Shown here one piece after another: positions 8,044-60,958 of a stretch of DNA of 64,000 nt (position 1 is the stretch's first letter; each line of letters begins with the position of its first letter). Source of the stretch: Ostreococcus lucimarinus (taxonomy: Eukaryota); NCBI GenBank assembly GCA_000092065.1, contig CP000596.1; one strand, written 5' to 3'. The translations under genes and the position numbers were made by a program. The notes beneath the pieces are model-generated. The model saw only the letters and a list, made by a program, of their open reading frames with translations, was not told the DNA's origin and made no database searches.

Positions 8044-8210
8044 TAGGGAATCGGACAGAAAGGGAAGACGACGGAAACACAATAGTCTCTAGCGTGACTC
8101 ACTTCCAGTGACTCACTGAAACGATATGTGAATACGAATATTTCGTTCTCAAACTACAAATGCTGTGTGTGTTTATACAAATCAAAACGCCTCGCCGTCG
8201 TCCGCCGCCT

Positions 8211-8900
8211 TCATCGGTACATCGCCTCCGATTGCAAGTTTCTCGCGATCTCCTTCTCCCATCGATCACCGTTAGAGAGTAACTTCTCCTTATCGTACAG
8301 CAACTCCTCGTGCGAAAACGTCGCGTACTCAAAGTTTGGTCCCTCCACGATGGCGTCCACCGGGCACGCCTCTTGGCAAAACCCGCAAAAGATGCACTTC
8401 GTCATGTCTATGTCGTATCTCGTCGTTCGTCGACTTCCGTCCTCTCTCTCCTCCGCCTCGATCGTGATCGCTTGCGCTGGGCATATGGCCTCGCACAACT
8501 TACACGCGATGCATCTTTCCTCACCCGTGGGATACCTTCGCAGCGCGTGTTCGCCTCGAAACCTCGGCGACAGCGGTCCCTTTTCGAACGGGTAGTTGAT
8601 CGTCACCTTTTTATCGAAGAAGTACTTCAGCGTCAGCGACATCCCTCGCAGGAGCTCCGTGAGCACGAGCGTCTTCGCGCTCGCGTCCAGGACGCCCGCG
8701 AGATCGGTCGGCATCGCCTTCTCCGCGAGTTCGCGCGAGCGATCGGCGCTCGCGGTCGTCGCGGGCGATCGCGGGGTGGAGTCGCGATCGACGACGGCGC
8801 CCGCGTCGCGCGCGGTGTCGCTCGCGAACGCGCGAAGGGACGTCGAGGGCGAGCCCTCGGTGGCGCGCTTGAACGCGGCGCGCGCGCCGTGACGAAGCAT
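8211..8900 (-). CDS. NDUFS8: NADH:ubiquinone oxidoreductase 23 kDa Fe-S subunit (NDUFS8/TYKY), mitochondrial
   Basis: Two 4Fe-4S ferredoxin motifs ([12 protein letters not shown] and [12 protein letters not shown]) are present. The flanking sequence is the conserved TYKY sequence ([25 protein letters not shown]...[23 protein letters not shown]). An N-terminal presequence is present. Confidence 0.9.
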
Positions 8901-9009
8901 GGCGCGCGTCGATGTGCGGCGGACGTCGGCGTCGACGCGTTAGGTCTAGGCTGGTCGACGCCCGTCGACGCGACGCGCGAGCGAGGGAGTGTTTTACAGA
9001 TTACTACGA

Positions 9010-9492
9010 TCACGAGATGGCGATCTTATCCATGAGCGAACCGTGCATCTTCTCCAGTTTCATGAGCTGATCGTACACGTTCAAGATTTTATTCGTGTTG
9101 ATCTCGAGCACCAACCCCCCGACGATTGTCTCGTCGAGCACGGTGTACGCCTTCGGAGAGTTGAAAATCAAATCCAATTCGCACACGTTCTCGAACACCC
9201 GATCGAGGGTTTCGACGTAGACTTGAATCAGATCCAGCATCGCCAGCTCGCTCTCGCTTCGATCGCTCAGGATGCAAAAGTACAGCGTCGCGAAGTGTCT
9301 GTACACCAGCTTCGTGTCCGGGCCGAACGTCTTCTCGTCGTCCACGAACGAGCACAGGTGATCCGGTCGCCCCGTCACGAGCTTGTACACCGTCTGACAC
9401 AGCTCCGTCTGTTTATCCACCCCGAGCTGTTCGTAAAATCTACACAATCGCACCATGGCGTGGTTATTCACCACGATGAACGCCTTGATCAT
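9010..9492 (-). CDS. AP complex sigma subunit (clathrin-adaptor small chain), closest to AP-3 sigma
   Basis: 160 aa, single exon. MIKAFIVVNNH...LVYRHFATLYFCILSDRSESELAMLDLIQVYVETLDRVFENVCELDLIF matches sigma-adaptin, and AP-3 sigma best. Confidence 0.8.
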   Translation of the reverse strand: MIKAFIVVNNHAMVRLCRFYEQLGVDKQTELCQTVYKLVTGRPDHLCSFVDDEKTFGPDTKLVYRHFATLYFCILSDRSESELAMLDLIQVYVETLDRVFENVCELDLIFNSPKAYTVLDETIVGGLVLEINTNKILNVYDQLMKLEKMHGSLMDKIAIS

Positions 9493-9555
9493 CGTCCTCG
9501 TCGTCCGACAACACCAATGGATTGACCACCCAAATCAACGCAGTGAATGAATGAT

Positions 9556-9582
9556 TCGTTTCGTTTCGTTTCGTTTCGTTCG
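9556..9582. repeat. (GTTTC)5 microsatellite in a bidirectional intergenic region
   Basis: The sequence cgtttcgtttcgtttcgtttcgtt is seen directly. Confidence 0.8.
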
Positions 9583-9734
9583 CCGACGCGAGGTTCGCGC
9601 CGCGATCGTCGGACCCCGCGCGGCGCCGCGATCCGTCCTCGATCACCGCCACCGTCGCGCCCCCGTCCGACCGCGCGTCGGCGCGTCGGCGTGTCGCGCC
9701 CGCGCGCGATCGACGCGACGCGACGCGCGAAACA

Positions 9735-9790
9735 CCGAAAAACCGAAAAACCGAAAAACCGAAAAATCGAAAAACCGAAACCGAAAACGA
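9735..9790. repeat. (CCGAAAAA)n microsatellite, about 6 units
   Basis: The sequence ccgaaaaaccgaaaaaccgaaaaaccgaaaaatcgaaaaaccgaaaccgaaaacgaa lies in the spacer between the AP-sigma and COX6B genes. Confidence 0.8.
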
Positions 9791-10374
9791 ACCTCGACCG
9801 CGACGATCTCGAGGGCGTCCGGGGTTCCGTCAAAACCCTACATACTGTTTCCCCACACGACACAAAAACCGGTCGGTCGGACACCCATGCGCGTCGCCCG
9901 GCGTCGTCGCGCGACGCCGCAAACCCGCACGCCGCGCGCGATGTCGAGCGACGAGGAAGAAGCGCCGGCGCCGGCGATGGAACACGGCGAGGAGGCGCGT
10001 CGACGACGACGCGCGCGAGCGATCGACGCGCGCGCGGAAGCGCGAGAACCGCGCGCGCGGGCGAACGACGGGCGCGGGACGAGGGCGCGCGCGCGATCGG
10101 GGGCGAGGCGGACGACGCGCGACGACGGAGAAAGAGGGACGGGACGGGAGAGGGCGACCGGACGACGACGACGACGCGAACGATGGGATCGCGATGATGG
10201 GGACTGACGGCGCGCGACGCGCGAATCGAGCAGGTTTCGGCGCCGGAGCCGACGGCGAGCGCGGGGGACGTGGAGGTGCGTTTGAAGGCGACGCGCGCGC
10301 GAGGGGCGGGGAGGGGGACGAAATCACGGCGCGATCGATGAGACTGACGACGATGCGCGCGCGGTGGTGGATGT

Positions 10375-11516: not shown

Positions 11517-12378
11517 GGCGCGCTCTCGCGCGCGCGACGCGCACTGCGGCGAGGCGCGCGAACGCTCGGGACGGCGACGGCTTCGCGCGCCGCGCTACGC
11601 TACGTTTCCATTCTAAATCATCGAGCTCGACGCCGCGCGCACGGCGGCGTCGGCCTGGTACCAAACTAAATCATCCGAACTCTCATCGTCGCTCGCGTCG
11701 TCTCGGTCGTCGCTCGCGTCGCCGTTCACGACGACGCGAACGCGCCGGCGCTCGACGCGCGCGCGCTTCGCCGGCGCGAATCCCGGCTTGGGCGCGTATC
11801 CCTCCACCTCGTCCGTCGTCGCGCGCGCCTCGACGAAGAAAAACGCCCTCAATCCCGCGCTCTGCGGCGGATTTAACGTCGCCATCACCGGCACGAACGC
11901 CCGCACCGCTCGTCTCGACACCGCGTCCGCCGTCTCTTCGCGTTCGTCCTCGCGCGTCGTCGTCGTCTCCGCGTACGCCACCCCTCGCAGATCCATCTCG
12001 TACGCCTCCCTCGTCCGCGTCGCCGTCGTTCCCAGCGTCATCACCACCCTTCGCGGTCGCAATCGTTCGAACGCGCGCGCGTCGAACGCTCGCGCGAGCG
12101 CCCTTCTCGTCTCTCGCGCGCGTCGTCGCCGCGTTCGCTCGCCGCGCGTCCTCGCCCGCGTCCCGCGCGCGCGTCCCTCGTTTCGCCGTCTTCGTCGCGC
12201 GACGCCGACGGCGCGCGAATTGAACGCATCGTCGTCGTCGCGCGCGCCGTCGTCGTCGCGCGCGTCGTCGTCGCGCGCGTCGTCGTCGTCGGTCGTTTCG
12301 TCGTCGTTCGGCGCCGGTTCGCGCGCGCAGTCCCTGGCGTAGAGCGCGAACGCGAACGCCGCGCGCGCGGCTCTGGCG

Positions 12379-13560
12379 ATGACGAACGCGTCGCGCTCGC
12401 GGTGCGCGTCGCGCCGGAGCGCGAGCATGCGTGTGACGCGCGCGAAGAAGGCGAATCGCCGCGTCAGTCCACGACGCGTCATGCCGAGCCCGACGCGGAC
12501 GCCGACGACGAGCGCGGCGACGTTCACGCGCGCGCTGCGCGGAAGCGCGAGCGATCGACGTCGCGCGCGCGCGCGGCGCGCGCTCGCGGCGACGCGCGGC
12601 GCGCGCGCGGCGGACGCGGGCGCGGCGAGGGGGACGATCGCGCGTCGCGCGCGGGGCGTCGCGCGCGCGGACGCGCGATCGCTCGGCGGACGCGATGGCG
12701 CGGACGCGCGGCGTCGAGACGCGAGGCGTCGCGCGACGAGCGAGGAGAGCGAGGACGACGACGTGGATTGGGCGCGGGAGGTGGACGCGGGGGACGGCGA
12801 CGGCGAATTCGTCGTCGAGGCGTTCGATACGAGGGACGATCTGGCGCGGGCGCTGTGCCTGGAGGTCGAGGAAAACGCGCGGGGGTGCTTGCAGGAGCGA
12901 GGGGCGTTCACGATGGCGGTGCCGGGAGGGAGCGTGGCGAAGGCCCTGCGCGGGCTGCGCGAGGCGGAGGGATTGGATTGGGACAGGGTGCACGTGTTCT
13001 TCGTCAACGAGCGACCGGGGGAGCAAAAGTGCGCGAAATTGGCCAAGGAGACGTGGACGGAGGCGTGTGGGATTCCTGATGCGAACGTGCACTGCGTGAT
13101 GGCGAGCGATGACGTGGAAGCGTGCGCGGCGGATTACGAAAAGCAAATGCGGTCGCTCGACGAAAACCAAATGCCGATCGACGAGGAGAACGGAATGCCG
13201 GTGTTTGATTTGATCTTGCTCGGAATGGGGGCGGATGGACACGTGGGGAGTATTTATCCGAACTCTGCCGCGGCGAACGACGAGACCGGGGCGTGTGTGC
13301 TCGGAGTGGACATGCCGGGGAAGCGGACGGTGACGATGAGCATGGCGCTCATCAACACCGCCGATCGCGTCGTGCTCGCGGCGACTGGGAGTGAGAAGGC
13401 TGAGACCGTGCGAGCGGCGCTCGAGGACGAACTCGAGTGGGGGGAAATTCCGGGCTCCATGGTGGACGCGTTCTCGACGATTTGGTTCCTCGATCTCGCG
13501 GCGGCGTCCAAGTTGAGCGCCTACGAGGACATGGACATGGACACGGACGACGACGAATGA
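12379..13560 (+). CDS. PGL: 6-phosphogluconolactonase with a long N-terminal targeting/low-complexity extension
   Basis: AVPGGSVAKAL and VFDLILLGMGADGHVGSIYPNS...RVVLAATGSEKAETV match the PGL/glucosamine-6-P isomerase family. The true start may be a later Met; the N-terminal 120 aa are Arg/Ala-rich. Confidence 0.75.
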   Translation: MTNASRSRCASRRSASMRVTRAKKANRRVSPRRVMPSPTRTPTTSAATFTRALRGSASDRRRARARRALAATRGARAADAGAARGTIARRARGVARADARSLGGRDGADARRRDARRRATSEESEDDDVDWAREVDAGDGDGEFVVEAFDTRDDLARALCLEVEENARGCLQERGAFTMAVPGGSVAKALRGLREAEGLDWDRVHVFFVNERPGEQKCAKLAKETWTEACGIPDANVHCVMASDDVEACAADYEKQMRSLDENQMPIDEENGMPVFDLILLGMGADGHVGSIYPNSAAANDETGACVLGVDMPGKRTVTMSMALINTADRVVLAATGSEKAETVRAALEDELEWGEIPGSMVDAFSTIWFLDLAAASKLSAYEDMDMDTDDDE

Positions 13561-13727
13561 CGCGCGCGTCGACGACAGGCGACGACAAGGAACGTATTTT
13601 TATCGATCAAAGTTTGATAGTAATACGAGAAAATTTTCCCATGAGGTGGTGCATTAGATTGAGTTTGAAATTACATTTCAATGCGTACAACAAAAGACAA
13701 CTTTCGAGCGCCGCTCGAGTCGCGCAA

Positions 13728-14776
13728 TCACCAGTCTCCGCTTCCGATGGGCTGCTGCACGCCCTGCGCCGCGCGCATCATCTGCACCGCGCGTTCTCGA
13801 AGCTGCGCGACGTCCCAATCGAGATCGGTGATTTTATGCTCGTAGATGAAGCCCTTGGAATCGAGCTTGTACTCGGAGATTCCGTCGAACCTCGCCTCGT
13901 CGGCGCCGATGGAGCCGACGAGTCTCACCTTGCCGCGAACGCTCCAGCGCACGCGGATCGTTCGAAGGCCCGACGAACCCAAAGGGGACCAAATGCGAGA
14001 CACCTCCATCGTGCTCTGCGAAAACAACACGGCGGCGATGATACGAATGATCTTGAACACTCGTTTGTACTCGGACATGTTCGTCGCCATGACGCCGTTT
14101 CGTCCCTCTCTTCCCGGCCCCGCGAACGTCATCGTCTCGTCCAACAGCCCGATATCGTCCCTGTAGATCGTCCATCGAGGCTCTTTGGTCAACAAATACG
14201 GGTAGTCCTCGCGAAGGACTCGAATCGCCTCCCCAGACTGCGCGTAAAAATCGTCGTCCTTGCTCGAGCTCGGGCCGTCCTCGTCGCGTCCGCCCGACGG
14301 TCCCTTCGATTCCGTCGAATCCACGATCGCGGGCGTCGTGGACACGCTGTAATCTGTCCCACCCTCCACCGCGACGCATCGCAGCGCGCGCGCGCGCGTC
14401 GTCGTCGTCGTCGTCGTCGCCCTACTCCCCGTCGCGTTCGACCTATCCCGTTCGAATCCCCCCTCGCTCGTCTCGCTCGGCGCCTCGATCTTCACCGTCA
14501 CTCGCACCGCGCGCCCTCCGCCCCTGCACGCCGGACACGCCGTCACTCCCGTGTATCCACACGACCCGCATCCCTCGCCGTCGCCGCTCCATCGCGTGCA
14601 CGAGCACGCCGTTCGTCCGCTCCCCTCGCACTTCGGGCACGCCTCGTCCGCGTCGTCCCCGTCACTCGTCATCCGCGCGTACGCGCACAGGATCGCCCCG
14701 CACGTCGCCGCCTGCTCCGCCCACCACACCGCGTCGCCCGCGTGCGGCATCGCGCGCGTCCGCGTCGTCCCGCGCG

Positions 14777-14813
<37 letters not shown>

Positions 14814-14963
14814 GCGGTCCGCAATCACCGCGCGTTCGACCGCGCCCCGCGCGCGCGACGCGCGACGACGCGTCGCGGCGACGCGCGCCGTCGTCGCGCG
14901 CGCGCCGTCGTCGCGCGCGGTCGACCGCGCGGGCGCGATCGCGCGCGCGACCGCGCGCGCCAT
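13728..14963 (-). CDS. Hypothetical protein with poly-Thr runs, a DnaJ-type CxxCxGxG zinc finger and a C-terminal DUF2358/NTF2-like region
   Basis: CPKCEGSGRTACSC...CGSCGYTGVTACPACRGGG is a DnaJ-like Zn finger. The C-terminus is conserved-looking and non-low-complexity (DYPYLLTKEPRWTIYRDDIGLLDETMTFAG...). The poly-T runs are encoded by (GTC/GAC)n. The start is uncertain. Confidence 0.5.
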
Positions 14964-15004
14964 CGCAGATCCCCCGCGATTCGCCGCGACGTCGAGTGCC
15001 GACG

Positions 15005-15373
15005 GTCGACGCGACGACGGCTCGATCGCGCGATCGCGCGATCGCGACTCGATCGACGACGCGCGTTTCGACGCGCGCGCGCGATCGACGCCGCGAGGTT
15101 CGCGCGCGACCGCGCCGATCGATCGGCGTCGACGCGACGACGGCTCGATCGCGCGATCGCGCGATCGCGACTCGATCGACGACGCGCGTTTCGACGCGCG
15201 CGCGCGATCGACGCCGCGAGGTTCGCGCGCGACCGCGCCGATCGATCGGCGTCGACGCGACGACGGCTCGATCGCGCGATCGCGCGATCGCGACTCGATC
15301 GACGACGCGCGCTTCGACGCGCGCGCGCGATCGACGCCGCGAGGTTCGCGCGCGACCGCGCCGATCGATCGGC
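15005..15373. repeat. Near-perfect 123-bp tandem repeat x3 (a fourth unit is degenerate), frame-preserving
   Basis: The unit gtcgacgcgacgacggctcgatcgcgcgatcgcgcgatcgcgactcgatcgacgacgcgcgtttcgacgcgcgcgcgcgatcgacgccgcgaggttcgcgcgcgaccgcgccgatcgatcggc recurs at 15005, 15128 and 15251, with a single t/c difference between copies. Confidence 0.9.
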
Positions 15374-15811
15374 GTCGGCCGCGGTCGCGCGCGCGACTCG
15401 CGCGACGCGCGCGCGAGACGCGCGCGCGGTGGACGATCGCGACGCGGGCGTCGACGCGACGGACGCGCGGTCGACGATCGATCGGCGCGCGCGACGGGCG
15501 CGAGGGAGGCGCGCGCGACGCGGGAGGCGCGCGCGGCGGTGCGGGTTCGGAGAGACGCGCGCGGCGGACGGACGCGCGGGGGCGCGGCGGAGGCGCGGAG
15601 ACGACCGAGGCGCGGTGAGGGAGTCGAGGGGATGCGCGCGCGAGCGATGGTGGGGGTCGAGGGGGGCGCGCGCGGGCGCGCGCGGGCGGTGGGACGCGAA
15701 AGAGGGAGGGACGGCGGGCGACGGCGACGCGCGGCGACGACGAGACGCGCCTCGGTCGTGGATTCCGACGCGGAGAGGGCGGGGAAGGATAAGGCGACGA
15801 AGGGATCGAAA

Positions 15812-16780
15812 ATGGTGACGAGCGTGGCGGAGGAGGAGGAGGATGGATTGGAGCACGTGTACGAGAAATCGCGGTGGTTTGAGATTCGGGACGTGGTTCG
15901 CCCGACGCAGGTGGCGCTGGGGTGGGATTGGACGTTTTATAAGCTCGCGAATTTTAAAGACGCCGACAGCGCCAAGGCGTACATGGCTCGGAAACCGATT
16001 CCGTACGTTAAATACCGAGGGTTGCGGTACGTGGTGGATCATCATCACACGCTCGCCGCGCTGAACCTGGCGGGTTGGGACATCGACGTTTACATGGAAG
16101 AGATTTTTGAGTACGACGACGACATCGGGGACGACAGGTTTTGGGGTAACATGGAGGGTAAAGGTTGGAGCTTCTGTTGGGATTCGGATTACTCTCGCTT
16201 GTCGCACGAATCTATCCCGAAATCGTTTGAACTGCAGGCGTTTAGAAACGACATCTTTCGCTCGCTCGGGGGGTTCTGCCGGAAAGCCAAGCTCCTCAAG
16301 CGCGGCAAGATGCTCGAAGAAAAATTATTTTTCGAGTTCCAGTGGGGATACTTTTTCTGGCTCCATAGAAACGACGCTTACGCGCTCTGGCCGTCGTCAC
16401 AACTGCAACGCGGTTTTGACCGTCTGCTCGCTATGATTGAGCAAACGGACGACAGCGAATACATCGGCGAGGGACATCTTGAGGCGAGTCGTGACGTCGC
16501 AGACATGATCTTTCTCTCGGACAAAGTTTTGCAACCGCTTTACGAAGTGCTCGTTGAGTACGTCGCGCCCCTGGCGTACGCGTACGCCACCTTGCCCGAC
16601 GACGCGCGCGTCGTCCACGGTTTGAGAAAGAGATTCGGCCGCGAGACTCTTCCCGGTTCCGTCATCACCGGCCAGTTTGACTTCTTAACCGAGCGTCAAA
16701 ATTTCACCATGCCCGAGGATGGGAAGAAGGACAAGTCTAAGGATGGAAAATCGAGCTCGAGCTCGAAGAAGAAGGACTAA
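15812..16780 (+). CDS. ParB-like nuclease (ParBc_2-type) domain protein
   Basis: PTQVALGWDW...PIPYVKYRGLRYVVDHHHTLAALNLAG resembles the ParB/sulfiredoxin-fold DGHHR motif. The ORF stays open upstream through the tandem repeats to 14996, so an Arg-rich N-terminal extension cannot be excluded. The first Met after the repeats is at 15812. Confidence 0.5.
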   Translation: MVTSVAEEEEDGLEHVYEKSRWFEIRDVVRPTQVALGWDWTFYKLANFKDADSAKAYMARKPIPYVKYRGLRYVVDHHHTLAALNLAGWDIDVYMEEIFEYDDDIGDDRFWGNMEGKGWSFCWDSDYSRLSHESIPKSFELQAFRNDIFRSLGGFCRKAKLLKRGKMLEEKLFFEFQWGYFFWLHRNDAYALWPSSQLQRGFDRLLAMIEQTDDSEYIGEGHLEASRDVADMIFLSDKVLQPLYEVLVEYVAPLAYAYATLPDDARVVHGLRKRFGRETLPGSVITGQFDFLTERQNFTMPEDGKKDKSKDGKSSSSSKKKD

Positions 16781-21548: not shown

Positions 21549-22020
21549 GGATAATGCGCTATTACGCGACGGCGCGATGTGAGCGGACGAGACGCGGACG
21601 CACCCGCTCGCTCGCTCGCTCGCGCGCGCGCTCGTCGCGTAATAGTCGCGCCGCGGCGCGCGTTCCGCGCGTTCGATTGGAACGGTCGCGCGCGATCTCG
21701 CGAGGAATTCGTTCGCATCGTCGCCGTGCGAAAACCATGGCTTCGACGATGACGACCACGACACAGTCCTCGCGACTCGCGCGCTCGTCGTGACGCCAAG
21801 TCGAGTAACCGTCGAGCGTCTCCGCGCTCGACGTTCGTCTTCGCCGATAACCGCCGAACAATCGACGCGAACGCTCGCGTAAGATTTATCACATCATTCA
21901 TTTCACGCGCCATCATTCTTTGTACGTTGTTATACACTACACTCATTCATACGCGAACGCTCGCCTCGCCGCCGTCTCGTCTCGCGCCCGCCGCACTTTG
22001 TCCCTCGCGCGTTCGCCGTC

Positions 22021-26879: not shown

Positions 26880-28466
26880 CTAAGACGAAGAATCCTCCGC
26901 CGTGACGCCTGACATCACCGTCGCTTCTCTTTCCAATCTCTCTAAAAGTCGAATCTTGTCCGCATATTTCCAATACGGATTGGCGTCGAGCGTGTTCACC
27001 GCCATCTTCGACATTTCGCGCAAGACGTTGTCTTTGTCGATGTCGGAGACGACGGCTTCGAGCGAGGCGCGTTCGGCGAGGAAGTTATCGCGGAAAGGAG
27101 ACAAACCCGCGCGCTTACGCATCAAACGTTCGTAATCGCGCTGCTGCGCTCTCGCCTCCACCGCTTCCTTCTTCAAAAACTCAAACTCTTCCTCGCTCTC
27201 CACCTCGGCGGCTTGCATCAGCCACTCCTTGTTCGCTTCGACGTACTCTTCGTCGCTCTGCGCTCGTTCTTGGCTCCCAAGGCGTGGCGTTTCGATGATA
27301 TGCGCAACATCGAGGTTTTCGTGGAACAAAAGCAAACTCTTACGATCGAACTCTTGCCTGTCATAATCGTAAGTCTTGTTCTCGGCTTGAAGCTGACGCG
27401 CGACGCGAATGCGCTCGGTGAGCGCCTGTTGAATCTTCGCGTCTTGCGCGTCGCCTCTCTTCTCGCGACGACGCGTCGACGGCGCAGCGCGTCTACGCTG
27501 TGCGATACCCATTCCCATGGCGCCATCCTTGCTACGTCGCGACGACGTGGATGCTAAAAGCGATGGATCAAACTTCAAATCATCCACCGAGCCGCCGTCG
27601 GTGCGTCGCTTGTAGCGAGGCACGAAAAATTTAACATTTTCTCGCCCCGCGGCGACGCGTTCGGCACGCCGCGCTTCAGACATCTCCCGCGCCTTTGCCT
27701 TCTGATCCATTAACTTTTCTGCTCGAATCTTGCGACGATTTGCAATCTCCGCCTCTCGCCTCTCCAACGCCTCCGCCGCCGCCTCCGCGTCCAACGGTTC
27801 GCCGTCGTCGCCGACGAGCGACGTCAAATTCTCAATCACTTTTCGCGACTTTCGCCTCGGCGTCGGTGACATCTCCTCAACTTCCCCTTCTTGCGGTTTC
27901 TTTGCCGCTAATCGCAACACCAACGCCCCCGGCGCGCCGTCCAGCGCCCCCAACTCGCCCTCGCTCGCCGCCGCGATCGCCTTCTCCGCGTGTTCCGCCC
28001 TCACGAAGCGCACCAGCCCGCCCGGCCACGGCCCCTCGGGATTCAGCGCTTTCGCCGATAATATCGGTCCATACTTTCTAAACGTCCGCTTCAGCATGTC
28101 CTCGTCCACGCCCGGCGGCATGTTTTTCACGTAGACGTTCGCCGCGTCCCGAGGCGACGGTTCGAGCCTCGCTCGCGTCTGCGCCGTCCGTCGTCGCGTC
28201 CGCCGTTTCGCCGTCTCCGCGTCCCGCGCCGTCGCGTCGTCACCCTCGTCATCGTTCGTCGCTCGCGTCGTCGTCGCGTTCGCGTCCTCGCCCGCGTCGT
28301 CGTCGTCGTCGCCGTTCGTCGTCGTCGTCGACAGAAACCTAAGCGCGATCGCGCGCCCGCTCGCGCGCGTCGCGCTCGCGCTCGCGCGATGCGACGCCTC
28401 GTCGGCGAAGCGCGCGCGCGTCAGCGCCTCCGCGAGCGCGCCGCGGGCGAGCGCGCGAAGCCGCAT
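26880..28466 (-). CDS. RRM-domain RNA-binding protein
   Basis: VYVKNMPPGVDEDMLKRTFRKYGPILSAK...GGLVRFVRAEHAEKAI contains RNP2/RNP1-like motifs. The rest is a charged or coiled region. Confidence 0.55.
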   Translation of the reverse strand: MRLRALARGALAEALTRARFADEASHRASASATRASGRAIALRFLSTTTTNGDDDDDAGEDANATTTRATNDDEGDDATARDAETAKRRTRRRTAQTRARLEPSPRDAANVYVKNMPPGVDEDMLKRTFRKYGPILSAKALNPEGPWPGGLVRFVRAEHAEKAIAAASEGELGALDGAPGALVLRLAAKKPQEGEVEEMSPTPRRKSRKVIENLTSLVGDDGEPLDAEAAAEALERREAEIANRRKIRAEKLMDQKAKAREMSEARRAERVAAGRENVKFFVPRYKRRTDGGSVDDLKFDPSLLASTSSRRSKDGAMGMGIAQRRRAAPSTRRREKRGDAQDAKIQQALTERIRVARQLQAENKTYDYDRQEFDRKSLLLFHENLDVAHIIETPRLGSQERAQSDEEYVEANKEWLMQAAEVESEEEFEFLKKEAVEARAQQRDYERLMRKRAGLSPFRDNFLAERASLEAVVSDIDKDNVLREMSKMAVNTLDANPYWKYADKIRLLERLEREATVMSGVTAEDSSS

Positions 28467-28519
28467 CGCGCGCCGCGCGTCGCGATCTGCGCCGCGTCAC
28501 ATCGCGCCGCGTCATCGTC

Positions 28520-29443
28520 ATGACGCTCGCGCGGCGCGCACCGCGCGTCTCGGTCGCCCTCGCGCGCGACGAGGGACGATCGCGACGACGCGCGCCCGAG
28601 CGCGCCCGAGCGCGTCGCGGCGCGCGCGCGCGGGCGAAGGAATCGAGCGGAGACTTCATCACGGACGTCGTCGGGAAGATTTTCGGCGCCGACGCGCTCG
28701 CGGACCCCGAACCGTTCGGACTGAAGCGCATGAACAAGGACGAGTGGCCCGATCAGTGGCCCGCGGAGACGACGGCGTCGGCGGCGGCGCTGGCGAGCGA
28801 CGAGGGGGAGGTGAGGGAGATTCGACCGGCGCTGAAGCAGACGCAGTTGGAAAAGTTGGCGCTCGGGTGCGCGTACGACGCGAGGACGCACGGGTGGTCG
28901 GCGCGCGCGTTTCACACGCAACTCGACGGTCAGGGCGCGGCCGTGTTGGTCGGGAAGACGGCGGACGGGGAGACGTTCGGAGGATATAATCCGATCGGTT
29001 GGTTGGGATACGGCGAAGCGCGCGACGCCATCTCGGCGTTTTTGTACGTGCTCGATCGAAAAACGGGTAAAGCCGTCAAGCTGCCCAAGACGGGCGGGAG
29101 CGGCATGGCGATCATCGATGAGGATGGGAAAGGGCCGCAGTGGGGGCCGGACGGGTTGAAGATTTCGCTCGAGGGACGAAGCGCGAGGTCGCGGTTGGGG
29201 ACGTATTACGAAACCATGCCAGACGGCGGCGACTGCATGTTCGCGAACACCAAGCGCGGATCACCCGTGGAACTCACCGAGCTTCGCGTCTACGTGTCCT
29301 TAGAGGACACCGAGATCGCGAAAAATTACCAGCCGAACGCGTTGCAGTGGCAAAAGGGGGAACTGGAAGAGATTCGATCGAACGACGACGACCCAAACCA
29401 CATGGACGGGTTCTTCGGCAAACTCTTCGGCAAGAAAAAGTAA
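28520..29443 (+). CDS. TLDc-domain protein with an N-terminal targeting peptide
   Basis: AYDARTHGWSARAFHTQLDGQGAAVLVGKTADGETFGGYNPIGW...ELRVYV fits the TLDc pattern (F..GGY....W; the block ends in a variable stretch). Confidence 0.5.
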   Translation: MTLARRAPRVSVALARDEGRSRRRAPERARARRGARARAKESSGDFITDVVGKIFGADALADPEPFGLKRMNKDEWPDQWPAETTASAAALASDEGEVREIRPALKQTQLEKLALGCAYDARTHGWSARAFHTQLDGQGAAVLVGKTADGETFGGYNPIGWLGYGEARDAISAFLYVLDRKTGKAVKLPKTGGSGMAIIDEDGKGPQWGPDGLKISLEGRSARSRLGTYYETMPDGGDCMFANTKRGSPVELTELRVYVSLEDTEIAKNYQPNALQWQKGELEEIRSNDDDPNHMDGFFGKLFGKKK

Positions 29444-46414: not shown

Positions 46415-47353
46415 TCACGTCGCGCTTCCTTCTCGTAGGCGCTCTTCGACCGCGTCCATCGCCGCGGCGTCGAACCCCAAAATCTCGTACCACATTTTCC
46501 CATTCGCAGACTTCAAGTCTTTTTCACACTTCAAATTGACGCTCGCGCGGCGCACTGCCGCCGCCGCGATCGTCGGCGCCTCCTCTTCCCCCACGGGCTC
46601 CGCCGTCGCGAAGAGGGCATCCAACAGCGTCGCGCTCGCCGCGCACGCCAATTCCCTACTACCTCCGATCACATGTACGATGTGAAACATGTACACGTGC
46701 GGTTGCGCCGTGTTCAACTCATATTCCATCGCGCGAAGCATCTCTTGCTCCAAAACTAAGATTCGATCCTTGTACGCGTAATACAACGCCCCCGTCGCCG
46801 CGTTCATCGCGTCGCCGTCGCGCGCCGCGTTCATCGCCTCCGCACCCTCATCTCCCGCCCCACGACCCACGACCGCGTACCCAGCCAGCATTTCACCCTC
46901 CGCCCGTTCTCTCGCGTCCGCCTCGCTCAACCGCACGTCCGCGCGATCATCCAGCGCCACCGTTCCGTCCTCGCCGTCGAGCGTCGCCGCCGTCGCCGCC
47001 ACGACGTCCGCCAACCGCACCACCGACTCCTCCAGCTTACACGCCAGGTAGATCCCCGCCTGCACGACCAATTCGGGCGAGACTTTCGCGCGCTTCCGCG
47101 CCTCGTCCTCGCTCGCGCGCTCGATCGCGTCGCGCCGTTTATAAAACTTTAAAACGTTCGCCAGCGCCGTCACCGCGGTGTCGATCGGGAGGTTCAGCAG
47201 CTCGCACGCGCGCCGACACAGCGCGCGCGCCTGCGCGTTGCGACGCGCGCGACGCGCGTCGTCGCCGTCGCTCGACGCGACCGGCGCGCGGGACATGCGT
47301 CGCGGTGTGCGGAGATCAATCGACGTTCTAAATTTATGGCGCGACGTCGTCAT
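46415..47353 (-). CDS. Transcription-type cyclin (cyclin L/K/T-like, two cyclin folds)
   Basis: LCRRACELLNLPIDTAVTALANVLKFYKRRD...VVQAGIYLACKLEE is cyclin-box helix 1-3. The second fold is ILVLEQEMLRAMEYEL...AAAAVRRASVNL. The start is taken at the ATG at 47353 because the longer ORF (to 47506) would abut the divergent gene's ATG. Confidence 0.6.
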   Translation of the reverse strand: MTTSRHKFRTSIDLRTPRRMSRAPVASSDGDDARRARRNAQARALCRRACELLNLPIDTAVTALANVLKFYKRRDAIERASEDEARKRAKVSPELVVQAGIYLACKLEESVVRLADVVAATAATLDGEDGTVALDDRADVRLSEADARERAEGEMLAGYAVVGRGAGDEGAEAMNAARDGDAMNAATGALYYAYKDRILVLEQEMLRAMEYELNTAQPHVYMFHIVHVIGGSRELACAASATLLDALFATAEPVGEEEAPTIAAAAVRRASVNLKCEKDLKSANGKMWYEILGFDAAAMDAVEERLREGSAT

Positions 47354-47504
47354 CGCGCGACGCGACGCGTTTTCGGCGCGGTCCCGTCGCGGCCGTCGAC
47401 GCGGCGCGCGACGCGACGCGCGCGACGACGCGCGAGGCGGTTCGCGAGGACGCGCGGACGCGCGAACGCGCCGGAAACGCGTCGCGACGGTTCGTTTGAG
47501 CGTC

Positions 47505-48359
47505 ATGGGGAGCGATTACGCGCGACGCGTGCGGCGCGCTCGCGCGCTCGCGCGCGATCCCACGACGGCGCGCGACGCGCTGAGGGCGTTTTGCGCGTCC
47601 GACGCGAGCGCGGTCGGCGCGGTCGCGACGTTGGCCACGGCTGGGGCGAGCGGGTGCGGGAAAACGGCGCTCGTGCGGCGATTCTTCGCCGAGTCGCGGC
47701 GTCGACGCGGATGCGCGAACGCGGACGCGAGCGAGGATCGGCGCGCGACGCGGACGATCGGGATGGATTTCGGCGTGATGTCGTGCGCGCTCGAGCGCTC
47801 GGACGGCGACGAGGACGGTGGCGAAGCGCGCGCGCCGGCGCGCGCGCGCGGACGGTTTTTCGATCCGAGCGGCGCCGCGGCGCACGCGGCGTGTCGCGCC
47901 GCGGCGTACAGACGCGCCGACGGCGTCGTCTACGTCCTCGATCAGACGCTCGGAGACGTCGACGCGCGAGCCATCGAGCGCGGGCTTCGCGAGATCGTCG
48001 ACGCGCGGCGCGGCGAGACGCGCGGCGTCGTCCGCGTGCTCTTCGCGACGCGTCGGCGCTCGGGCGTCGACCGAATCGACGCCGCGACGACCGTCGACCG
48101 TCGCGCGCGAAAGCCGAGACCGACGCCGCGAGACGATCCATTCGCGCTGCTGCGCGACGTCAAAGCCGCGTGCGCGGCGGTGCTGACGACGAATCCGCTC
48201 GACGTCGCCTTCGTCCTCGTCGAGCCGCCGCGCGGGGCGTCGCTCGCGCGCGCGCTCGATTCGCTCCGCCATCTGACCCTCGTCGAAGTCGACGCTCGCG
48301 CTGGAACCGGCGTCGTCGACGCTTTTCACGCGTTATTCGCCGTCGCGCGGCGCGAGTGA
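47505..48359 (+). CDS. Degenerate Rab-like small GTPase, closest to IFT22/RABL5
   Basis: The P-loop is GASGCGKTAL (GxxxxGKT). A switch-I-like TIGMDFGV is present. FDPSG replaces WDTAGQ. ADGVVYVLD matches DAHGVVIVFN of IFT22. The NKxD motif is absent (LFATRRR), suggesting altered or no nucleotide specificity. Confidence 0.45.
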   Translation: MGSDYARRVRRARALARDPTTARDALRAFCASDASAVGAVATLATAGASGCGKTALVRRFFAESRRRRGCANADASEDRRATRTIGMDFGVMSCALERSDGDEDGGEARAPARARGRFFDPSGAAAHAACRAAAYRRADGVVYVLDQTLGDVDARAIERGLREIVDARRGETRGVVRVLFATRRRSGVDRIDAATTVDRRARKPRPTPRDDPFALLRDVKAACAAVLTTNPLDVAFVLVEPPRGASLARALDSLRHLTLVEVDARAGTGVVDAFHALFAVARRE

Positions 48360-48587
48360 CGCGCGCCGTCATCGCGCGTCTTCGTCTTCGTCGTCGTCGC
48401 CGCCGCGTCCCGCACACCTCGCCGCCCTATCCGCGATGTTCGCCGTCTCGACGTCCACCGTTGCCCTCCGCGCGCCCGCGCGATTCACCGTCAAGGTGCG
48501 TTTAGAGCGCAGACGGCGCGTTCGCGCGCGCAGAGCGCGTTCGCGCGCCGTCGCGGCGACGAACGCGAGCGATCACGCGGCAATGAC

Positions 48588-49001
48588 GTGTCCCGCTGTC
48601 GCGACGAAAGACTGACGAACGACGCGCGCGCGCGATGGATCGAGCAGCGAAGCGCGCGAGGCAACGCGCAGACGCGCGCGCTGTTTGGGAAGAAACCCGC
48701 GGCCGAGGCCGAGAGCGCGCCGGCGACGAAGAGCCGGTTCAAAGCCAAGGCGAAACCCGCGGCGGCGGCGAAAGCCGTCCCGGGCGAGCCGTACTACGTG
48801 GACGGTAAATTGTGGGTGTGCCAAGGGTGTGGATACGTCTACGACGGCTCGAAGGGGGCGTGGGCGGAGGGGAAGCGATGCCCGGCGTGCGGTGAGCGAC
48901 GATTCGCGCTGAAGTCGCCGCAGGAATTGCAAACGGCGATTTACGCCCTCGCGGCGTCGGTGGCGCTCATCGGCTTGCTCTTCATCATTCCCCGATTGTG
49001 A
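48588..49001 (+). CDS. Membrane-anchored rubredoxin (RBD1/RubA-like), probably thylakoid
   Basis: WVCQGCGYVYDG...RCPACG is a rubredoxin Fe(Cys)4 knuckle pair. The C-terminal TM helix is AIYALAASVALIGLLFIIP. Confidence 0.65.
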   Translation: MSRCRDERLTNDARARWIEQRSARGNAQTRALFGKKPAAEAESAPATKSRFKAKAKPAAAAKAVPGEPYYVDGKLWVCQGCGYVYDGSKGAWAEGKRCPACGERRFALKSPQELQTAIYALAASVALIGLLFIIPRL

Positions 49002-49118: not shown

Positions 49119-49997
49119 TCACTCTCGCGGCGGCTCGCCGAATGGCTTTAAAATCCCTCGCGCGAACGCTTGCTCGAGCGCGAGCGCGGCGAAGGCGTAC
49201 GTCAGCACGCCTTGACCCGCTAAGAGCGCCGCTTGCGCGTACGTCGCGAAATCGGCGTCGCCGTTCAGAGACGCGGCGCGTAGATAGACGTCGGCGGCGC
49301 TCAAACCGCGCGCCAATCCAAACGCGCCGACGACGCCACCCTTGAGCTCGTTATTCCCCAGATCTCGTCTCACAGCGTACCGATACGTGACCCCGAACAC
49401 CGCGCACGACACGGCGACGATGCCGATGGACACCAAGCCGCCGCCCTGCGACACAATCAAAGGCGTCGCCAATAAAGCGCCCGACGCGCCGCCGACGGCG
49501 GCTGACTTCGCGCTCTCCGCCTTCTCCGCCGCCTCATCGATCGACGTCCCGTCCGCCCACTTATCGCCCGCACCGTTCCCACCAGACGCGTCTTCTTTCG
49601 CTAATTCCTCCCGCAACGCCGCGCGTTCGGCGTCCAACGCCCGCATCTTCGCCTCGGCGCGCTCCACCGCGTCTCGCTTCAACGCCAGCGTCTCCTCCGC
49701 CGCGCGCTCCGCCTTCGACTGACTCGCTTCCGTCTTCATCTGCACCTCCTCAAACGTCGTTCGCACGCGCTCTCGCTCCATCTGTTCAACCTTTTCGATC
49801 TCCCGCGCCGCGACGTCGCGCGCGTCCCGCCCCGCCCGCTCCGCCTCCGCCCGCACGCTCGCGTCGCTCGCCATCATCGCCTCGATCTCCCGCGCCGTTC
49901 GCGCCTCGAGCGTTTCGATCGACGCGTCGATCGCGCGCGCGACCTCGTCCTCGCTCGCGTCGTCCAGCGCGCGCGCGCGCGTCGCGCGTCGCCGTCG

Positions 49998-50029
<32 letters not shown>

Positions 50030-50099
50030 CGCGCGCGCCGGACGACGACGCGACGCGCGCGCGCGCGATCGCGACGCGCGCCATCGTCGTCGTCGTCAT
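49119..50099 (-). CDS. Coiled-coil protein with a C-terminal Gly/Ala-rich membrane region, unknown function
   Basis: The N-terminal half is E/R/A coiled coil. The C-terminus has two hydrophobic segments (LLATPLIVSQGGGLVSIGIVAVSCAVFGV and GVLTYAFAALAL). Confidence 0.4.
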
Positions 50100-50587
50100 C
50101 TCGTCGTCGCGCGTCGTCGGCGCGCGCGCGCGTGCGCGGTGTCGCCGACGCCGACGCGCGCGCCCGCGACGCGCGCGTGGTCATTAATATAATCTGTTTC
50201 ATTAGCGCTAGTGGGACATTTTCGTTAGTTGTGTGGGTAAACAGTAGCGGCAGGCGAGATGGAAAAAAGGGACTCGACGGTTCGTGATTCGAGAGGTGGC
50301 TTTTGGAGCGGTATTATTATTTTTGTCCGCGCTTGAAGAACGGAAAAAAATGCACAAAAAAAAGTCTCGTCGCGTTTTTTGTTTTTTGTCCATCTACCGT
50401 AAAGTGAATGTTAAATACGTAACCTCGTTTGAGTCCGCGTTAAGTAGTTTGGGTCCGTTTAGTGGTATATTTTATTTCGGATCCGCCCTCGGTGGTCACC
50501 CGTCGCGGCGTAGACCCTCGTCGATGCGATGCGGCCGCCGATCGCGGGCGCGCGCGTCTCGCGCTCCGTCTCTACGCGACGCGCGTG

Positions 50588-56777: not shown

Positions 56778-57663
56778 CTAGCCTAGAGAGATTCTCGCGC
56801 GGCGACCGTCGCAGTGACTGAACGTGCGCTCGACGCAGTACGTCGCGCTGCGCGCCTTGAAACGGGCGCCGCGAAGGGCGCTGGTGACGGTGGCGCACAT
56901 GGCCTGCACGGCGCGCGCGCGCTCTGGGTCCATCTGAAAGCCGTCGGCTCTGGCGAAGAGTCGCGCGAGCGTGCAGTGCACCGTGTCGTTCTGCGCTCGC
57001 GCGGCGCCGACGGCGCTCCGAGCCAATCTCTCGCGAATGGTCTGCACGTTCCCGTGAACGTCGTTGAAACAAAGAATGAGACACCCGCTCGGCGCCAGGC
57101 AGACGCGATCGACCTCGAGCTCGCACTCGCCGCACCCGCGCAGCGCCTCCGCCACGGCGCTCTCCTCGTACGCGACGGCGTCCTCGCGCGCGTTCGGCGC
57201 GTTCGGCGGCAGCGTCGCCGCGCTCGCGAACTCCACCGGCGCGCGCACGTACTCGAACGTCCGACTCAGATGAAACAGCGTCACGTGCAGGCTTCCTCGT
57301 CCCGGCGCGTACGCGTCCATCGTCGTCCCGCACAGCCGCGTCAACTCTCGCGTCGCCCGCTCCGCGGCGCTCACGATCGCCGGCGCGTCCTCCATCGTCA
57401 GTATCACCAATCTCGCGCAATCGCTCGGCATGCCCATCTCCGCGTACGTCTTCGGCCGCGTCCCGACGTCGGCGCGGCGCGCGAAGCGAAACCGCCGCCG
57501 CGCCGTCGTCGTCGTCGCGTCCAGCCCGTGCGTCGCGAACGCGAGCTCGAGCGCCTCGTACGTCCGCGAGACCTCGCGCGTGTGTTTCACGTCGATCGGC
57601 GCGCGCTTTTTCGACGTCGACGCTTCGGCGCGCCTCGTCCGCGCGTCGTCGTCGTCGTAATCG

Positions 57664-57700
<37 letters not shown>

Positions 57701-57799
57701 GCGCGAAGACGCGCGACGCGCACGCGTAATACGCCCCCGCGCCGCACGCCGCGCCCGCGAGCGCGGCGAGCGCGATCGCGCGCGTCCGTCGATCGAACA
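56778..57799 (-). CDS. 2H phosphoesterase superfamily protein (LigT/CPDase-like) with an N-terminal hydrophobic anchor and a poly-Asp tract
   Basis: Two H-x-T-x motifs (SLHVTLFHL and TVHCTLARLF) are spaced about 90 aa apart. The N-terminus is AIALAALAGAACGAGAYY. An 18-residue acidic run is encoded by (GAC)n. Confidence 0.5.
57645..57699. repeat. (GTC/GAC)n trinucleotide repeat, about 16 units, encoding a poly-Asp tract within the 2H phosphoesterase gene
   Basis: The sequence gtcgtcgtcgtcgtaatcgtcgtcatcgtcgtcgtcgtcgtcgtcgtcgtcgtcg is seen directly. Confidence 0.8.
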
Positions 57800-57953
57800 T
57801 CGCGTCGCGACGTGCCGATCGATCGCATCCGTCACACCGCGCCGTCGCGCATCGCGACGGCGCGCGTCGCGACGACCGCCGACGCGCGCGCCATCTCCGG
57901 CGCGCGAACGTTCCTGCGACGCCGCCGCGATACGCGACGACGCGGCGCGAACG

Positions 57954-58907
57954 ATGGATTCGCGATTCGCGTGCCGACGCGCGCTCGTCCGTCGCGCGCG
58001 CGACGCGTGCGCGCTGACGCTCGCGGCGTGCGCGCTGATCGCGGCGGTGAGCGCGGCGGCGACGCCGACGACGGCACAGGTCTCGATCGGGGCGCGGCGC
58101 GCGCGGACGGGGGCGATCGTCGCGGCGTGCGCGGCGGCGGCGTGCGCGGCGGCGACGCGCGCGCTGGATCGGGTCGGCGCGCGCGCGCGGTTCGTCGGAC
58201 CGGGGTCGCAGGACGCGCGGCGCGATGGGCGCGCGCGCGGGGGGGGGTCGGGCGGCGCGGGAGGGGCGCTGGAGACGCGGGCGTGGAACGGAAGCGCGTG
58301 GGTGGCGCGAGACGCGGCGGCGGCGGCGCCGGTGACGCGATGGATGGGACGCGATCGGAACGCGAGCGACGGCGTCGACGTCGTGCAGGGGACGGGGGCG
58401 TTCGGGTACGGTGGGTATCAGGAGGGGGTGGGGTACGAGGACGCGCGCGCGCGCGCCGAGGCGGAGCGCGCGGAGCGGGAAAAGTGGGCGCGGTGGGAAG
58501 CCGAGGACGAAGAGCGCGAGTCTCGCAAAGCGGAGAAGAAGGCGGAGAAAAAAGCGGAAGATCGGGCGAAGAAGGAAAAATCGCGCGCGAGGCGTTGGCA
58601 AAAGTACGACGAAGCTTGGGCGCGGTTGGACGCCGACTCGGGCGCGTCGTCGGAACCGCTTCGCTACGCCGACGTTCCTTGGCCGCCGAAAATGAAAGAG
58701 CTCCTCGACCGCGAAGCCGGCGGCGCGAGCGCCACCGATCGCGAGCGCAAGCTCGCGTACCACCGCTGCGTGAAGCGGTGGCACCCGGACAAGTTTCTCG
58801 CCAGATTCCGCGCGCGCCTCCGCGCCGACGACGCCGAGCGCGTCGTCGAGCGCGTCGAGGCGGTCGCCAAATCCTTGACCATCGCCTACGCCGCCTCCGC
58901 CTCGTAG
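57954..58907 (+). CDS. J-domain (DnaJ-like) protein with an N-terminal TM segment and a Lys/Glu-rich charged region
   Basis: The C-terminal LRYADVPWPP...ERKLAYHRCVKRWHPDKF...AKSLTIAY is a J-domain with the HPD tripeptide. The N-terminus has the hydrophobic ACALTLAACALIAAVSAAA. The middle is AEAERAEREKWARWEAEDEE. Confidence 0.55.
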   Translation: MDSRFACRRALVRRARDACALTLAACALIAAVSAAATPTTAQVSIGARRARTGAIVAACAAAACAAATRALDRVGARARFVGPGSQDARRDGRARGGGSGGAGGALETRAWNGSAWVARDAAAAAPVTRWMGRDRNASDGVDVVQGTGAFGYGGYQEGVGYEDARARAEAERAEREKWARWEAEDEERESRKAEKKAEKKAEDRAKKEKSRARRWQKYDEAWARLDADSGASSEPLRYADVPWPPKMKELLDREAGGASATDRERKLAYHRCVKRWHPDKFLARFRARLRADDAERVVERVEAVAKSLTIAYAASAS

Positions 58908-59071
58908 TCTCGCCGCTTGTATTTACGTATTTATGTAACCTCCTCTCGCGCCTCTCGCGCGCGTCGCGTCCGGGATTCATCGACACCGCGTCGGTTCGAT
59001 TTCGTCGCGCCGCGTCGCCGTCGCTCGCGCGCGCGCCGACGCCCAACCTCAGAGGGCGCCTCGCGAGCGCC

Positions 59072-60958
59072 ATGCTTCGCCCGCTCGCGCCGCGCCGCGT
59101 CCCGAGCGCGCGCCTCGCTCGCGCGTCGCGCGTCGCGCGTCGCGCGCCGCCCGCGCGCCCGCGCGCCCTCGCGCGCGCGTCGGCGGCGGCGTCCCGAAGA
59201 CTCTTTCGCCGCGACTCGGCGCGCGACGACGGCGCGCGCGACGGCGCGCGACGCCCGATCGCGCGCGACGCGCCCGTCGACGCCGCGCTCGCGCCCGCGG
59301 CGCGCGAGGACGAAAACGACGCGCGCGAGGCGAGGCGCGGGCGCGGGACGAGAAGCGGGACGAGGGACGACGACTCGAGCGACGACTCGAGCGACTCGAG
59401 CGACGACGACGACGCGACGAAGGAGGCGTCGGTGAAAGATTTGATGCGATTCACGCTGCCGACGATGGCGATATGGCTGTGCGATCCGCTGCTGTCGCTG
59501 GTGGACACGTCGGTGGTCGGGCTGAGCAGCGGGACGCTGGAGCTCGCGGCTATCGCGCCGGGGAGCGTGTACGCGGGGTATCCGTTTTATTTGCTGGCGA
59601 CCGGGTTCGCCGTGGCGACGACGTCGATGGTGGGACAGGATCGATTGCTCGCGAGACGCGGTGGGGCGGAGGATGAAGACGAGCGCACGGTGGCGTCGGC
59701 GATCATGACGGCGTCGGGGGTGGCGGCGATTTCGGCGGTTTTGTTAATCGCGGCGCACGAGCCGGCGCTCGCGAGATACGTGGGGAGCGCGAATGTGGCG
59801 CTTTTGCCCTACGCGAGCGCGTACAGCGTGATTAGAATATTGGCACTTCCCGCGGGGATCATCAGCGCGGTGGCGCAGTCCGCGTTTTTAGCCGTTCGCG
59901 ATCCGTGGACGCCGCTCAAGGCGGTGACGCTGACGACGGTGCTCAACCTCGTGCTGGATTTATGGTTCGTCACCGGGTTAGGTTGGGGGATCGCCGGCGC
60001 CGCCTGGGCGACGAGCGCATCACAAGTCATCACCATGGCGCTCCTCATCCGAGCGCTCGTGCGTCGAGGGCCGCAAATAGACAAGGTTAAGGAAATGTTG
60101 CGCGAGGCGAAGGAGCGCGCGAAGACGTCGGCGTTTTCGTCGACGAAGGAATCGCGCGCGGTGCGCAACGTGGGCGCACCAGCGTTGCGTCTACCATTTA
60201 AGAAGCCGAGAAATGATTATCTCGAGCGTTTGAAGTCGATCGCCGGGCCGGTGATGATGGTGGCGCTCATAAAGTGTATCTTTGTTGGTGCCATAGTGCG
60301 ATCCGCGACGGCCATCTCCCCGGAGGCGTCCGCGGCGAACGGCGTGCTCTTGACCGTGTACTTTTTTTTCGCCGTCGTCGGCGAGGGCGTGAGTCAGGCG
60401 GCGCAGGCCTTCTTACCGCCTCAACTCGGTAACTTTGAAAAGGCTTCCAAGCTCGCGTTCAACATCATGCTCGTCGGAGTCGTCATCGGCGGCTTCAACG
60501 CCGCCACGAGCGGTTTAGTGCCGAGCCTGTTCCCGCAAATGTTCACGAAGAGCGCGCCGGTGATCGATCTCATGAATCAAGCCATCCCATTCATGGCCTT
60601 GGCGCTTTTCGCGCACACTGGTAGCATGGCATCCGAAGGTTGTCTCCTCGCCGCGCGCGACGGCGTCTTCATGTCTCTCTCCTACGTCCCCAACGCCGCG
60701 CTGAGCTGCGTCACCCTGTCCATTTTATCCGCCAACGGCTTCGGCGTTCGCGCTTCCTGGATCGCACTCTTCCAGTTCCACTGCGTTCGTTTGGTCATCA
60801 ACGCCGTCCGTTTACGCGCCGCGAACAGCCCTCTGCGAAAGTCGTTATCCGCCGTCGCCGACGCTTCGAAAACCGACCTCGCCGCCGCCGCCGACAATTT
60901 CGCCGGTCTCGAGGGCATCGCCGACGTCGGCCAAACCCCAACCCCGACCACGTCTTAA
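59072..60958 (+). CDS. MATE-family efflux transporter (DTX/EDS5-like) with a long N-terminal transit-like extension
   Basis: Twelve-TM MATE core (MRFTLPTMAIWLCDPLLSLVDTSVVG...; the second half is LKSIAGPVMMVALIKCIF...). The upstream part of the frame (57812..59071) is Arg/Gly-rich spacer and was rejected. Confidence 0.75.
   Translation: MLRPLAPRRVPSARLARASRVARRAPPARPRALARASAAASRRLFRRDSARDDGARDGARRPIARDAPVDAALAPAAREDENDAREARRGRGTRSGTRDDDSSDDSSDSSDDDDATKEASVKDLMRFTLPTMAIWLCDPLLSLVDTSVVGLSSGTLELAAIAPGSVYAGYPFYLLATGFAVATTSMVGQDRLLARRGGAEDEDERTVASAIMTASGVAAISAVLLIAAHEPALARYVGSANVALLPYASAYSVIRILALPAGIISAVAQSAFLAVRDPWTPLKAVTLTTVLNLVLDLWFVTGLGWGIAGAAWATSASQVITMALLIRALVRRGPQIDKVKEMLREAKERAKTSAFSSTKESRAVRNVGAPALRLPFKKPRNDYLERLKSIAGPVMMVALIKCIFVGAIVRSATAISPEASAANGVLLTVYFFFAVVGEGVSQAAQAFLPPQLGNFEKASKLAFNIMLVGVVIGGFNAATSGLVPSLFPQMFTKSAPVIDLMNQAIPFMALALFAHTGSMASEGCLLAARDGVFMSLSYVPNAALSCVTLSILSANGFGVRASWIALFQFHCVRLVINAVRLRAANSPLRKSLSAVADASKTDLAAAADNFAGLEGIADVGQTPTPTTS

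Follow-up and report, generated by a model that had tools for sequence, protein, structure and literature searches.

A 123-bp tandem repeat between two divergently transcribed nuclear genes of Ostreococcus lucimarinus is probably a young, unstable and non-coding minisatellite (variable-number tandem repeat, VNTR) in a very CpG-rich spacer. Its units stand head to tail, at a single locus in the sequences searched, differ in number among haplotypes and carry variant-repeat patterns. The copies are homogenised within haplotypes, coding signals are absent over them, and the array is restricted to one lineage. All coordinates refer to the window, that is, the whole stretch of 64,000 nucleotides that was analysed.

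Structure and setting of the array

Positions 15005-15377 form by a wide margin the strongest tandem array of the 64-kb window (Tandem Repeats Finder: period 123, 3.0 copies, 99% matches, no indels, score 739). An earlier note on this DNA had described three 123-bp copies at 15005..15373 that differ by a single base, and direct comparison agrees: a T>C change at unit position 62 of copy 3 is the sole internal difference. Where that note counted three to four copies, the three full copies stand but the fourth amounts to just 4 bp, GTCG (x3.03), after which the periodicity breaks off; there is no leftward extension either. Half-unit patterns allowing up to three mismatches matched solely at the three array copies within the window, with no matches expected from shuffles. 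The right flank (15380-15586) is slightly more unit-like than simulated sequence, a marginal difference that carries no conclusion (P about 0.01), and likeness of the left flank to the unit was not above that of simulated sequence (P about 0.09). Signs of possible older, degenerate unit copies in the flanks are marginal at best. The runner-up, and the sole other array scoring above 150, is a CpG-rich repeat at 49968-50129 (89 bp x1.8, 81% matches) that spans the ATG (50099) of the minus-strand ORF 49119-50099, again at a gene 5' end or leader.

The array is 74% GC with a CpG o/e of 2.4, and each unit holds one 22-bp perfect palindrome (Table 1) and seven CGATCG sites. The latter amount to 57 per kb in the unit versus 2.3 per kb in the window, a 25-fold enrichment that is not common to the window's other GC-rich spacers. 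Together, the enrichment and the palindrome could reflect a binding site instead of neutral sequence. Literature searches for the CGATCG motif in Ostreococcus regulation and for a published description of an Ostreococcus minisatellite found nothing specific. A structured RNA or DNA hairpin was considered and rejected: the best Rfam matches reached 20-23 bits against gathering scores of 40-90, and the unit's fold is no stabler than that of shuffled sequence (z = -0.24).

The spacer that holds the array measures 848 bp at 14964-15811, with 76.8% GC and a CpG o/e of 2.03, whereas the window as a whole has 62% GC and a CpG o/e of 1.71. The array had been placed about 40 bp from the start codon of the divergent zinc-finger/DUF2358 gene; the measured distance to its ATG at 14963 is 42 bp, or 255 bp should translation truly begin at Met72 (14750). 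On the other side, the array ends at least 259 bp upstream of the ParBc_2 start. The remaining neighbours (6-phosphogluconolactonase, cytochrome c6-like, COMM, ALG3 and mitochondrial carrier genes) fit a picoalgal nuclear chromosome. In 1-kb bins, GC content spikes to 70-75% at intervals (for example in 1001-2000, 12001-13000, 14001-16000, 28001-29000, 47001-49000 and 57001-60000), versus 51-60% in conserved coding sequence, and where checked these spikes fall on gene 5' ends, leaders and spacers.

O. lucimarinus is an extreme outlier for CpG-rich tandem repeats, with CG, ACG and CCG types dominant, and its density of repeats with units longer than 6 bp exceeds that of microsatellites (Mayer et al. 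2010, PMC3152781). The array is a large, clean case of this known genome-wide tendency. Indels of 3-36 bp separate six haplotypes at about 25 sites in the 21 kb around the locus, and the largest step is the one of 123/246 bp at the array. Positions 21936-21954 are a multi-allelic indel hotspot, with +35, +18, -18 and -19 bp relative to the window among haplotypes.

The N-terminal leader of the DUF2358 protein is variable and Arg/Ala/Thr-rich, and conservation among aligned orthologues begins at about residue 72; homologues include an O. tauri protein. The coding region contains a perfect (CGT)10.7 microsatellite at 14781-14812, which on the minus strand encodes the leader's poly-Thr run and is length-polymorphic in frame (+3 bp in L018, +6 bp in L024). 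An imperfect, CpG-rich 30-bp repeat (x2.7, 14882-14960) also lies inside the coding leader, so that similar low-complexity DNA extends without a break from the spacer into Arg/Ala-rich leaders that are translated. In two of the 427-kb JGI contigs (L026 and L027, positions 8205-8978 and 9073-9972), DUF2358 is called as a truncated 257-aa product, which suggests that a frameshift, genuine or due to a sequencing error, lies in the GC-rich leader region. The window's exact 411-aa DUF2358 protein is not on record because of a private G at 14896, and the common variant P0035 was used in its place.

Table 1. Features of the locus in window coordinates, and array alleles with the contigs that carry them
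Feature	Position or contigs	Strand	Remarks
DUF2358 gene, DnaJ-type Cys-rich zinc-finger motif	13728..14963	-	Pfam PF10184, E = 7.7e-16
Divergent spacer, putatively non-coding	14964..15631	none	DUF2358 ATG to first possible ParBc_2 ATG; to 15811 if the start is 15812
Repeat copy 1	15005..15127	none	123 bp, identical to copy 2
Repeat copy 2	15128..15250	none	123 bp, identical to copy 1
Repeat copy 3	15251..15373	none	123 bp, one change: C at 15312
Palindrome, 22 bp, perfect	15023..15044, 15146-15167, 15269-15290	none	CGATCGCGCGATCGCGCGATCG = (CGATCGCG)x3; one per unit
GTCG	15374..15377	none	First 4 bases of right flank = first 4 bases of unit; junction microhomology
ParBc_2 gene (putative ParB-like nuclease)	15632..16780	+	Pfam PF08857, E = 1.1e-33, domain from about 15893
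Repeat-frame peptides			DATTARSRDRAIATR, STTRVSTR
1 copy, C at unit position 17	L016-L022, L025, L035, L042, L049, L053
1 copy, A17	L054
2 copies, [C17][C17]	L026, L027, L028		Contigs about 427 kb
2 copies, [C17][A17]	L023		427 kb
3 copies, all A17	L041
3 copies, all C17	Window		Third copy also C62
At least 2 copies	L044, L029, L024, L052		L044: A17 x2 or more, contig end; L024 and L052: 100-N gap inside array

Copy number and distribution of the unit

Exact-protein look-up in public assemblies returned many contigs of the locus, 99.2-99.8% identical to the window over 10-20 kb; a large share come from a few projects and are not independent population samples. Across about 25 environmental contigs, the array is present as one copy in 13, as two in four, and as three in one contig and the window, with at least two copies in four more (Table 1). 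The earlier note had proposed a very recent, unstable expansion and suggested comparing copy number across assemblies; that comparison, with one, two and three copies at the same locus, supports it. Copies within an array are homogeneous, whereas C17 and A17 distinguish haplotypes, and one array (L023) is mixed. Such a variant-repeat pattern marks a minisatellite that undergoes unequal exchange or conversion (concerted evolution). At 15312, the window alone has C, against T in every environmental copy, and the window also differs from every examined environmental haplotype at 14896 (G versus C) and 15546 (T versus G). These three differences are either private strain variants or errors in a region that is hard to sequence.

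Most of the single-copy calls rest on short-read assembly, a process in which identical tandem copies can collapse. At k = 127, a one-copy path cannot be told from longer arrays, since GTCG begins both the unit and the right flank. By our own reasoning, however, the k141 one-copy contigs (L019-L022, L054), which belong to assemblies ERZ27284422, ERZ27284436, ERZ27284513, ERZ27284522 and ERZ27295444, should need k-mers present solely in true one-copy molecules. About 20 other short-read contigs (among L001-L015 and L029-L035) stop at 15680-15803 or inside the array, and at several of these ends there is Nextera adapter sequence (AGATGTGTATAAGAGACAG) or a chimeric stretch of unrelated sequence; contigs that end in the spacer or array indicate that the region sequences poorly. 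Since such spacers break short-read metagenome assemblies and can collapse repeats, claims about copy number need long reads.

In the window and in the metagenome scan, the unit occurs at this locus only. There is no other copy in the window, and a 30-mer from inside the unit matched four additional JGI metagenome contigs, all four of them here. No unit was found in viral contigs, and all occurrences in the window and the environmental contigs have identical flanks. A dispersed element (transposable or introner-like) or a viral origin was rejected on these two grounds. Three related Ostreococcus lineages (L036, L039 and L040; 78-81% ParBc_2 amino-acid identity) keep the gene order 6PGL / DUF2358 / ParBc_2 / cytochrome c6, with spacers that measure 467-909 bp between the DUF2358 ATG and the conserved block (65-67% GC, CpG o/e 1.6-1.9). 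Neither the 123-bp array nor a recognisable homologue of the unit was found in these three spacers, where comparison with the unit gave just scattered CpG-rich, low-complexity matches on both strands. The array is therefore young and lineage-specific.

Reading frames across the spacer

An ORF at 14996-16780 (translation table 11) does run through the repeats into the ParBc_2 gene, as the earlier note had observed, and the 41-aa translation of the unit given there matches the computed one. This ORF begins with GTG, a start that is valid solely under the bacterial code of the ORF tool. Open frames are the rule in this sequence: five of the six frames of the 848-bp spacer are stop-free, with two stops in the sixth, close to its 3' end, and the unit has no stop in any of its six frames. 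In simulations with the dinucleotide statistics of the spacer, 82% of 123-nt units had no stop in one given frame and 55% had none in any of the three, and 25% of whole 848-nt frames were stop-free. The frame through the array is thus open because of base composition, T and A being too rare for stop codons; a unit length that is a multiple of three is a coincidence with odds of 1 in 3. The same scarcity accounts for four overlapping ORFs of 355, 460, 594 and 793 aa across the spacer (13437-15818, 14551-15618 and 14996-16780 on the plus strand; 14825-16207 on the minus strand).

No ATG occurs in any plus-strand frame of 14964-15631, so the repeat is without a canonical start codon. The first three plus-strand ATGs (15632, 15647 and 15812) are all in the ParBc_2 frame, and on the minus strand the sole ATG of the spacer region is the DUF2358 start. 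We rejected ATG depletion as evidence of a 5'-UTR, since this absence is compositional (probability of no ATG under dinucleotide shuffles, P = 0.16).

Codon usage was scored as a log-likelihood, in bits per codon, trained on conserved coding segments of the window. The three plus frames of the repeat score -0.20, -0.11 and -0.04, the lowest value being that of the frame claimed to be coding, and every frame of the post-repeat spacer lies at about 0. By comparison, the in-frame score is +0.41 for the conserved ParBc_2 coding sequence, +0.16 for the genuine Arg/Ala-rich leader of DUF2358 and +0.17 for that of 6PGL. The segment 15632-15811 reaches +0.36 in the ParBc_2 frame, a positive signal that makes a 60-aa Gly/Arg-rich ParBc_2 leader plausible.

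The true ParBc_2 start, among 15632, 15647 and 15812, is uncertain. Met 15812 has the best start context (AAAATGG) and recurs in one related lineage (P0017), but P0018, P0019 and P0021 lack it and must therefore start upstream. An NCBI partial model begins at 15758, and the protein from that position is identical to XP_001421863.1 (O. lucimarinus CCE9901). Gene models on record encode 382, 377, 340 and 322 aa, and the repeat is in none of them. In an alignment of 12 homologues (A1), ParBc_2 conservation begins at EEEEDGLEH, just past ATG 15812, and the upstream parts of other Ostreococcus-type ParBc_2 proteins are unalignable R/A/S-rich leaders. One contig (L028) carries a 1-bp insertion equivalent to window position 15383 that would break the repeat frame, though it could be a sequencing error. 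Judged by these signals, the repeat appears to be non-coding and not part of the ParB-like protein.

Origin and possible effects of the array

One copy is probably the ancestral state. In single-copy alleles, the unit, which starts GTCGAC, is followed directly by GTCGGCCGCGG, so that the duplication junction is a 4-bp direct repeat, GTCG, 123 bp apart, as expected for slippage or illegitimate recombination. A plausible history is that the 123-bp segment bounded by GTCG was duplicated by replication slippage or by illegitimate recombination at this microhomology. Copy number may then have shifted among one, two and three by unequal exchange, slippage or gene conversion, and the same exchange or conversion would keep the copies within one array identical. 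The repeat would not be translated, its open frame being a by-product of base composition. Because the array begins so close to the DUF2358 ATG, it should lie in or right beside the 5'-UTR or core promoter of that gene, a position relative to the transcription start sites that we infer from this distance. Each added copy would make the shared 5' region 123 bp longer, and the phenotype would most likely change little or not at all.

Two other readings would remove either the polymorphism or the non-coding status of the repeat. Mis-assembly of a GC-rich region could in principle produce three copies, or differences between assemblies, with no real polymorphism behind them: short-read contigs break systematically at 15680-15803 or in the array and end in adapter remnants, a 100-N gap interrupts the array in each of two scaffolds, and identical repeats collapse easily. 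We regard this as very improbable. L041 has three copies independently and on the other SNP background, and the window's array is therefore not an assembly artefact; single-copy alleles of both SNP types together with the mixed array of L023 cannot arise by collapse of one sequence; and four chromosome-length contigs agree on two copies. Still more remote is the proposal, made in the earlier note, that the repeat is an Arg-rich N-terminal extension of ParBc_2, adding 41 aa per unit from an upstream start. The frame is indeed unbroken from 14996 to 16780, the unit is divisible by three, and genuine leaders in this genome are likewise Arg/Ala-rich. However, a GTG would have to serve as the start in a eukaryote for want of any ATG upstream of 15632, all six frames are open for compositional reasons, codon usage is non-coding with the claimed frame scoring worst, no orthologue aligns over the repeat, no recorded gene model covers it, and the L028 insertion, if not a sequencing error, breaks the frame. 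The coding extension was rejected on the start codon, the codon log-likelihood, the lack of orthologue support and the six open frames.

The other proposal of that note, a variable-number promoter or 5'-UTR element of the divergent pair, fared better, in that both the position and the variability hold. One to three units might tune the expression of DUF2358 and/or ParBc_2 as a copy-number-dependent cis-regulatory element, either as a block of putative binding sites (for example, the CGATCG palindromes) or as a spacer that sets nucleosome occupancy or the geometry of the promoter; a comparable tuning of expression is reported for unstable promoter repeats of yeast. The location between divergent start codons at 42 bp from the DUF2358 ATG, the polymorphism in the wild and the enrichment of CGATCG in the unit relative to the window's other GC-rich spacers are all consistent with such a role, and the overlap or contact with the DUF2358 5'-UTR or core promoter keeps an effect of copy number on regulation conceivable. 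Yet the unit is wholly absent from related lineages with the same gene pair and is thus not a conserved module, its motif richness may just reflect the (CGATCGCG)n microrepeat in low-complexity CpG-rich DNA, and no literature was found linking CGATCG to Ostreococcus regulation; we consider this role unlikely. More speculatively, and with rather little expectation of its being right, the CGATCG-dense palindromic unit may be an array of putative binding sites or DNA-modification targets in a bidirectional promoter, with one to three copies maintained in wild O. lucimarinus by expression tuning of DUF2358 and/or ParBc_2. A related idea is that CpG-rich spacers that are open in six frames and encode Arg and Ala may be raw material for new N-terminal targeting leaders once an ATG is gained.

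The biological stakes of a minisatellite at this locus are modest, and the practical lessons for ORF calling and short-read assembly outweigh them. Bacterial-code ORF calling on a eukaryote yields false N-terminal extensions, and long ORFs over the GC-rich spacers of this genome (355-793 aa, in several frames together) are no evidence of a gene. The array is also a PCR-sized polymorphic marker by which O. lucimarinus haplotypes can be distinguished in metagenomes and cultures, through its 123-bp steps and the diagnostic SNPs at unit positions 17 and 62. The mixed array is a hint that haplotypes undergo exchange in natural populations.

Comparison with known repeats and leaders

Classical GC-rich promoter minisatellites and VNTRs include the human INS VNTR and the unstable promoter repeats of yeast. 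The array resembles them in its head-to-tail units of tens to about a hundred bp, its high GC content and its location upstream of genes, as well as in its copy-number polymorphism and the variant-repeat patterns of unequal exchange or conversion. Unlike them, it has a very low copy number (1-3), is known here from sequence alone, and resides in a haploid picoalga with a compact genome, for which an 848-bp spacer is long.

The Arg/Ala-rich leaders of Mamiellales proteins, presumed targeting peptides, offer a second comparison, since the repeat gives a similar R/A/S/T/D-rich composition in any frame. CpG-rich, low-complexity DNA of this sort also encodes real leaders, among them the leaders of DUF2358 and 6PGL and those of ParBc_2 orthologues, but these have an ATG and a positive in-frame codon signal, whereas the repeat has neither.

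A third comparison is with the repeats surveyed by Mayer et al. 2010 (PMC3152781), which come from the same genome and belong to the same CpG-dense CG/ACG/CCG class; the 123-bp unit is itself built of short CpG-rich sub-repeats, as in that class. Whereas the survey covered units of 1-50 bp and no population variation, the array described here has a longer unit, near-perfect copies and documented copy-number alleles.
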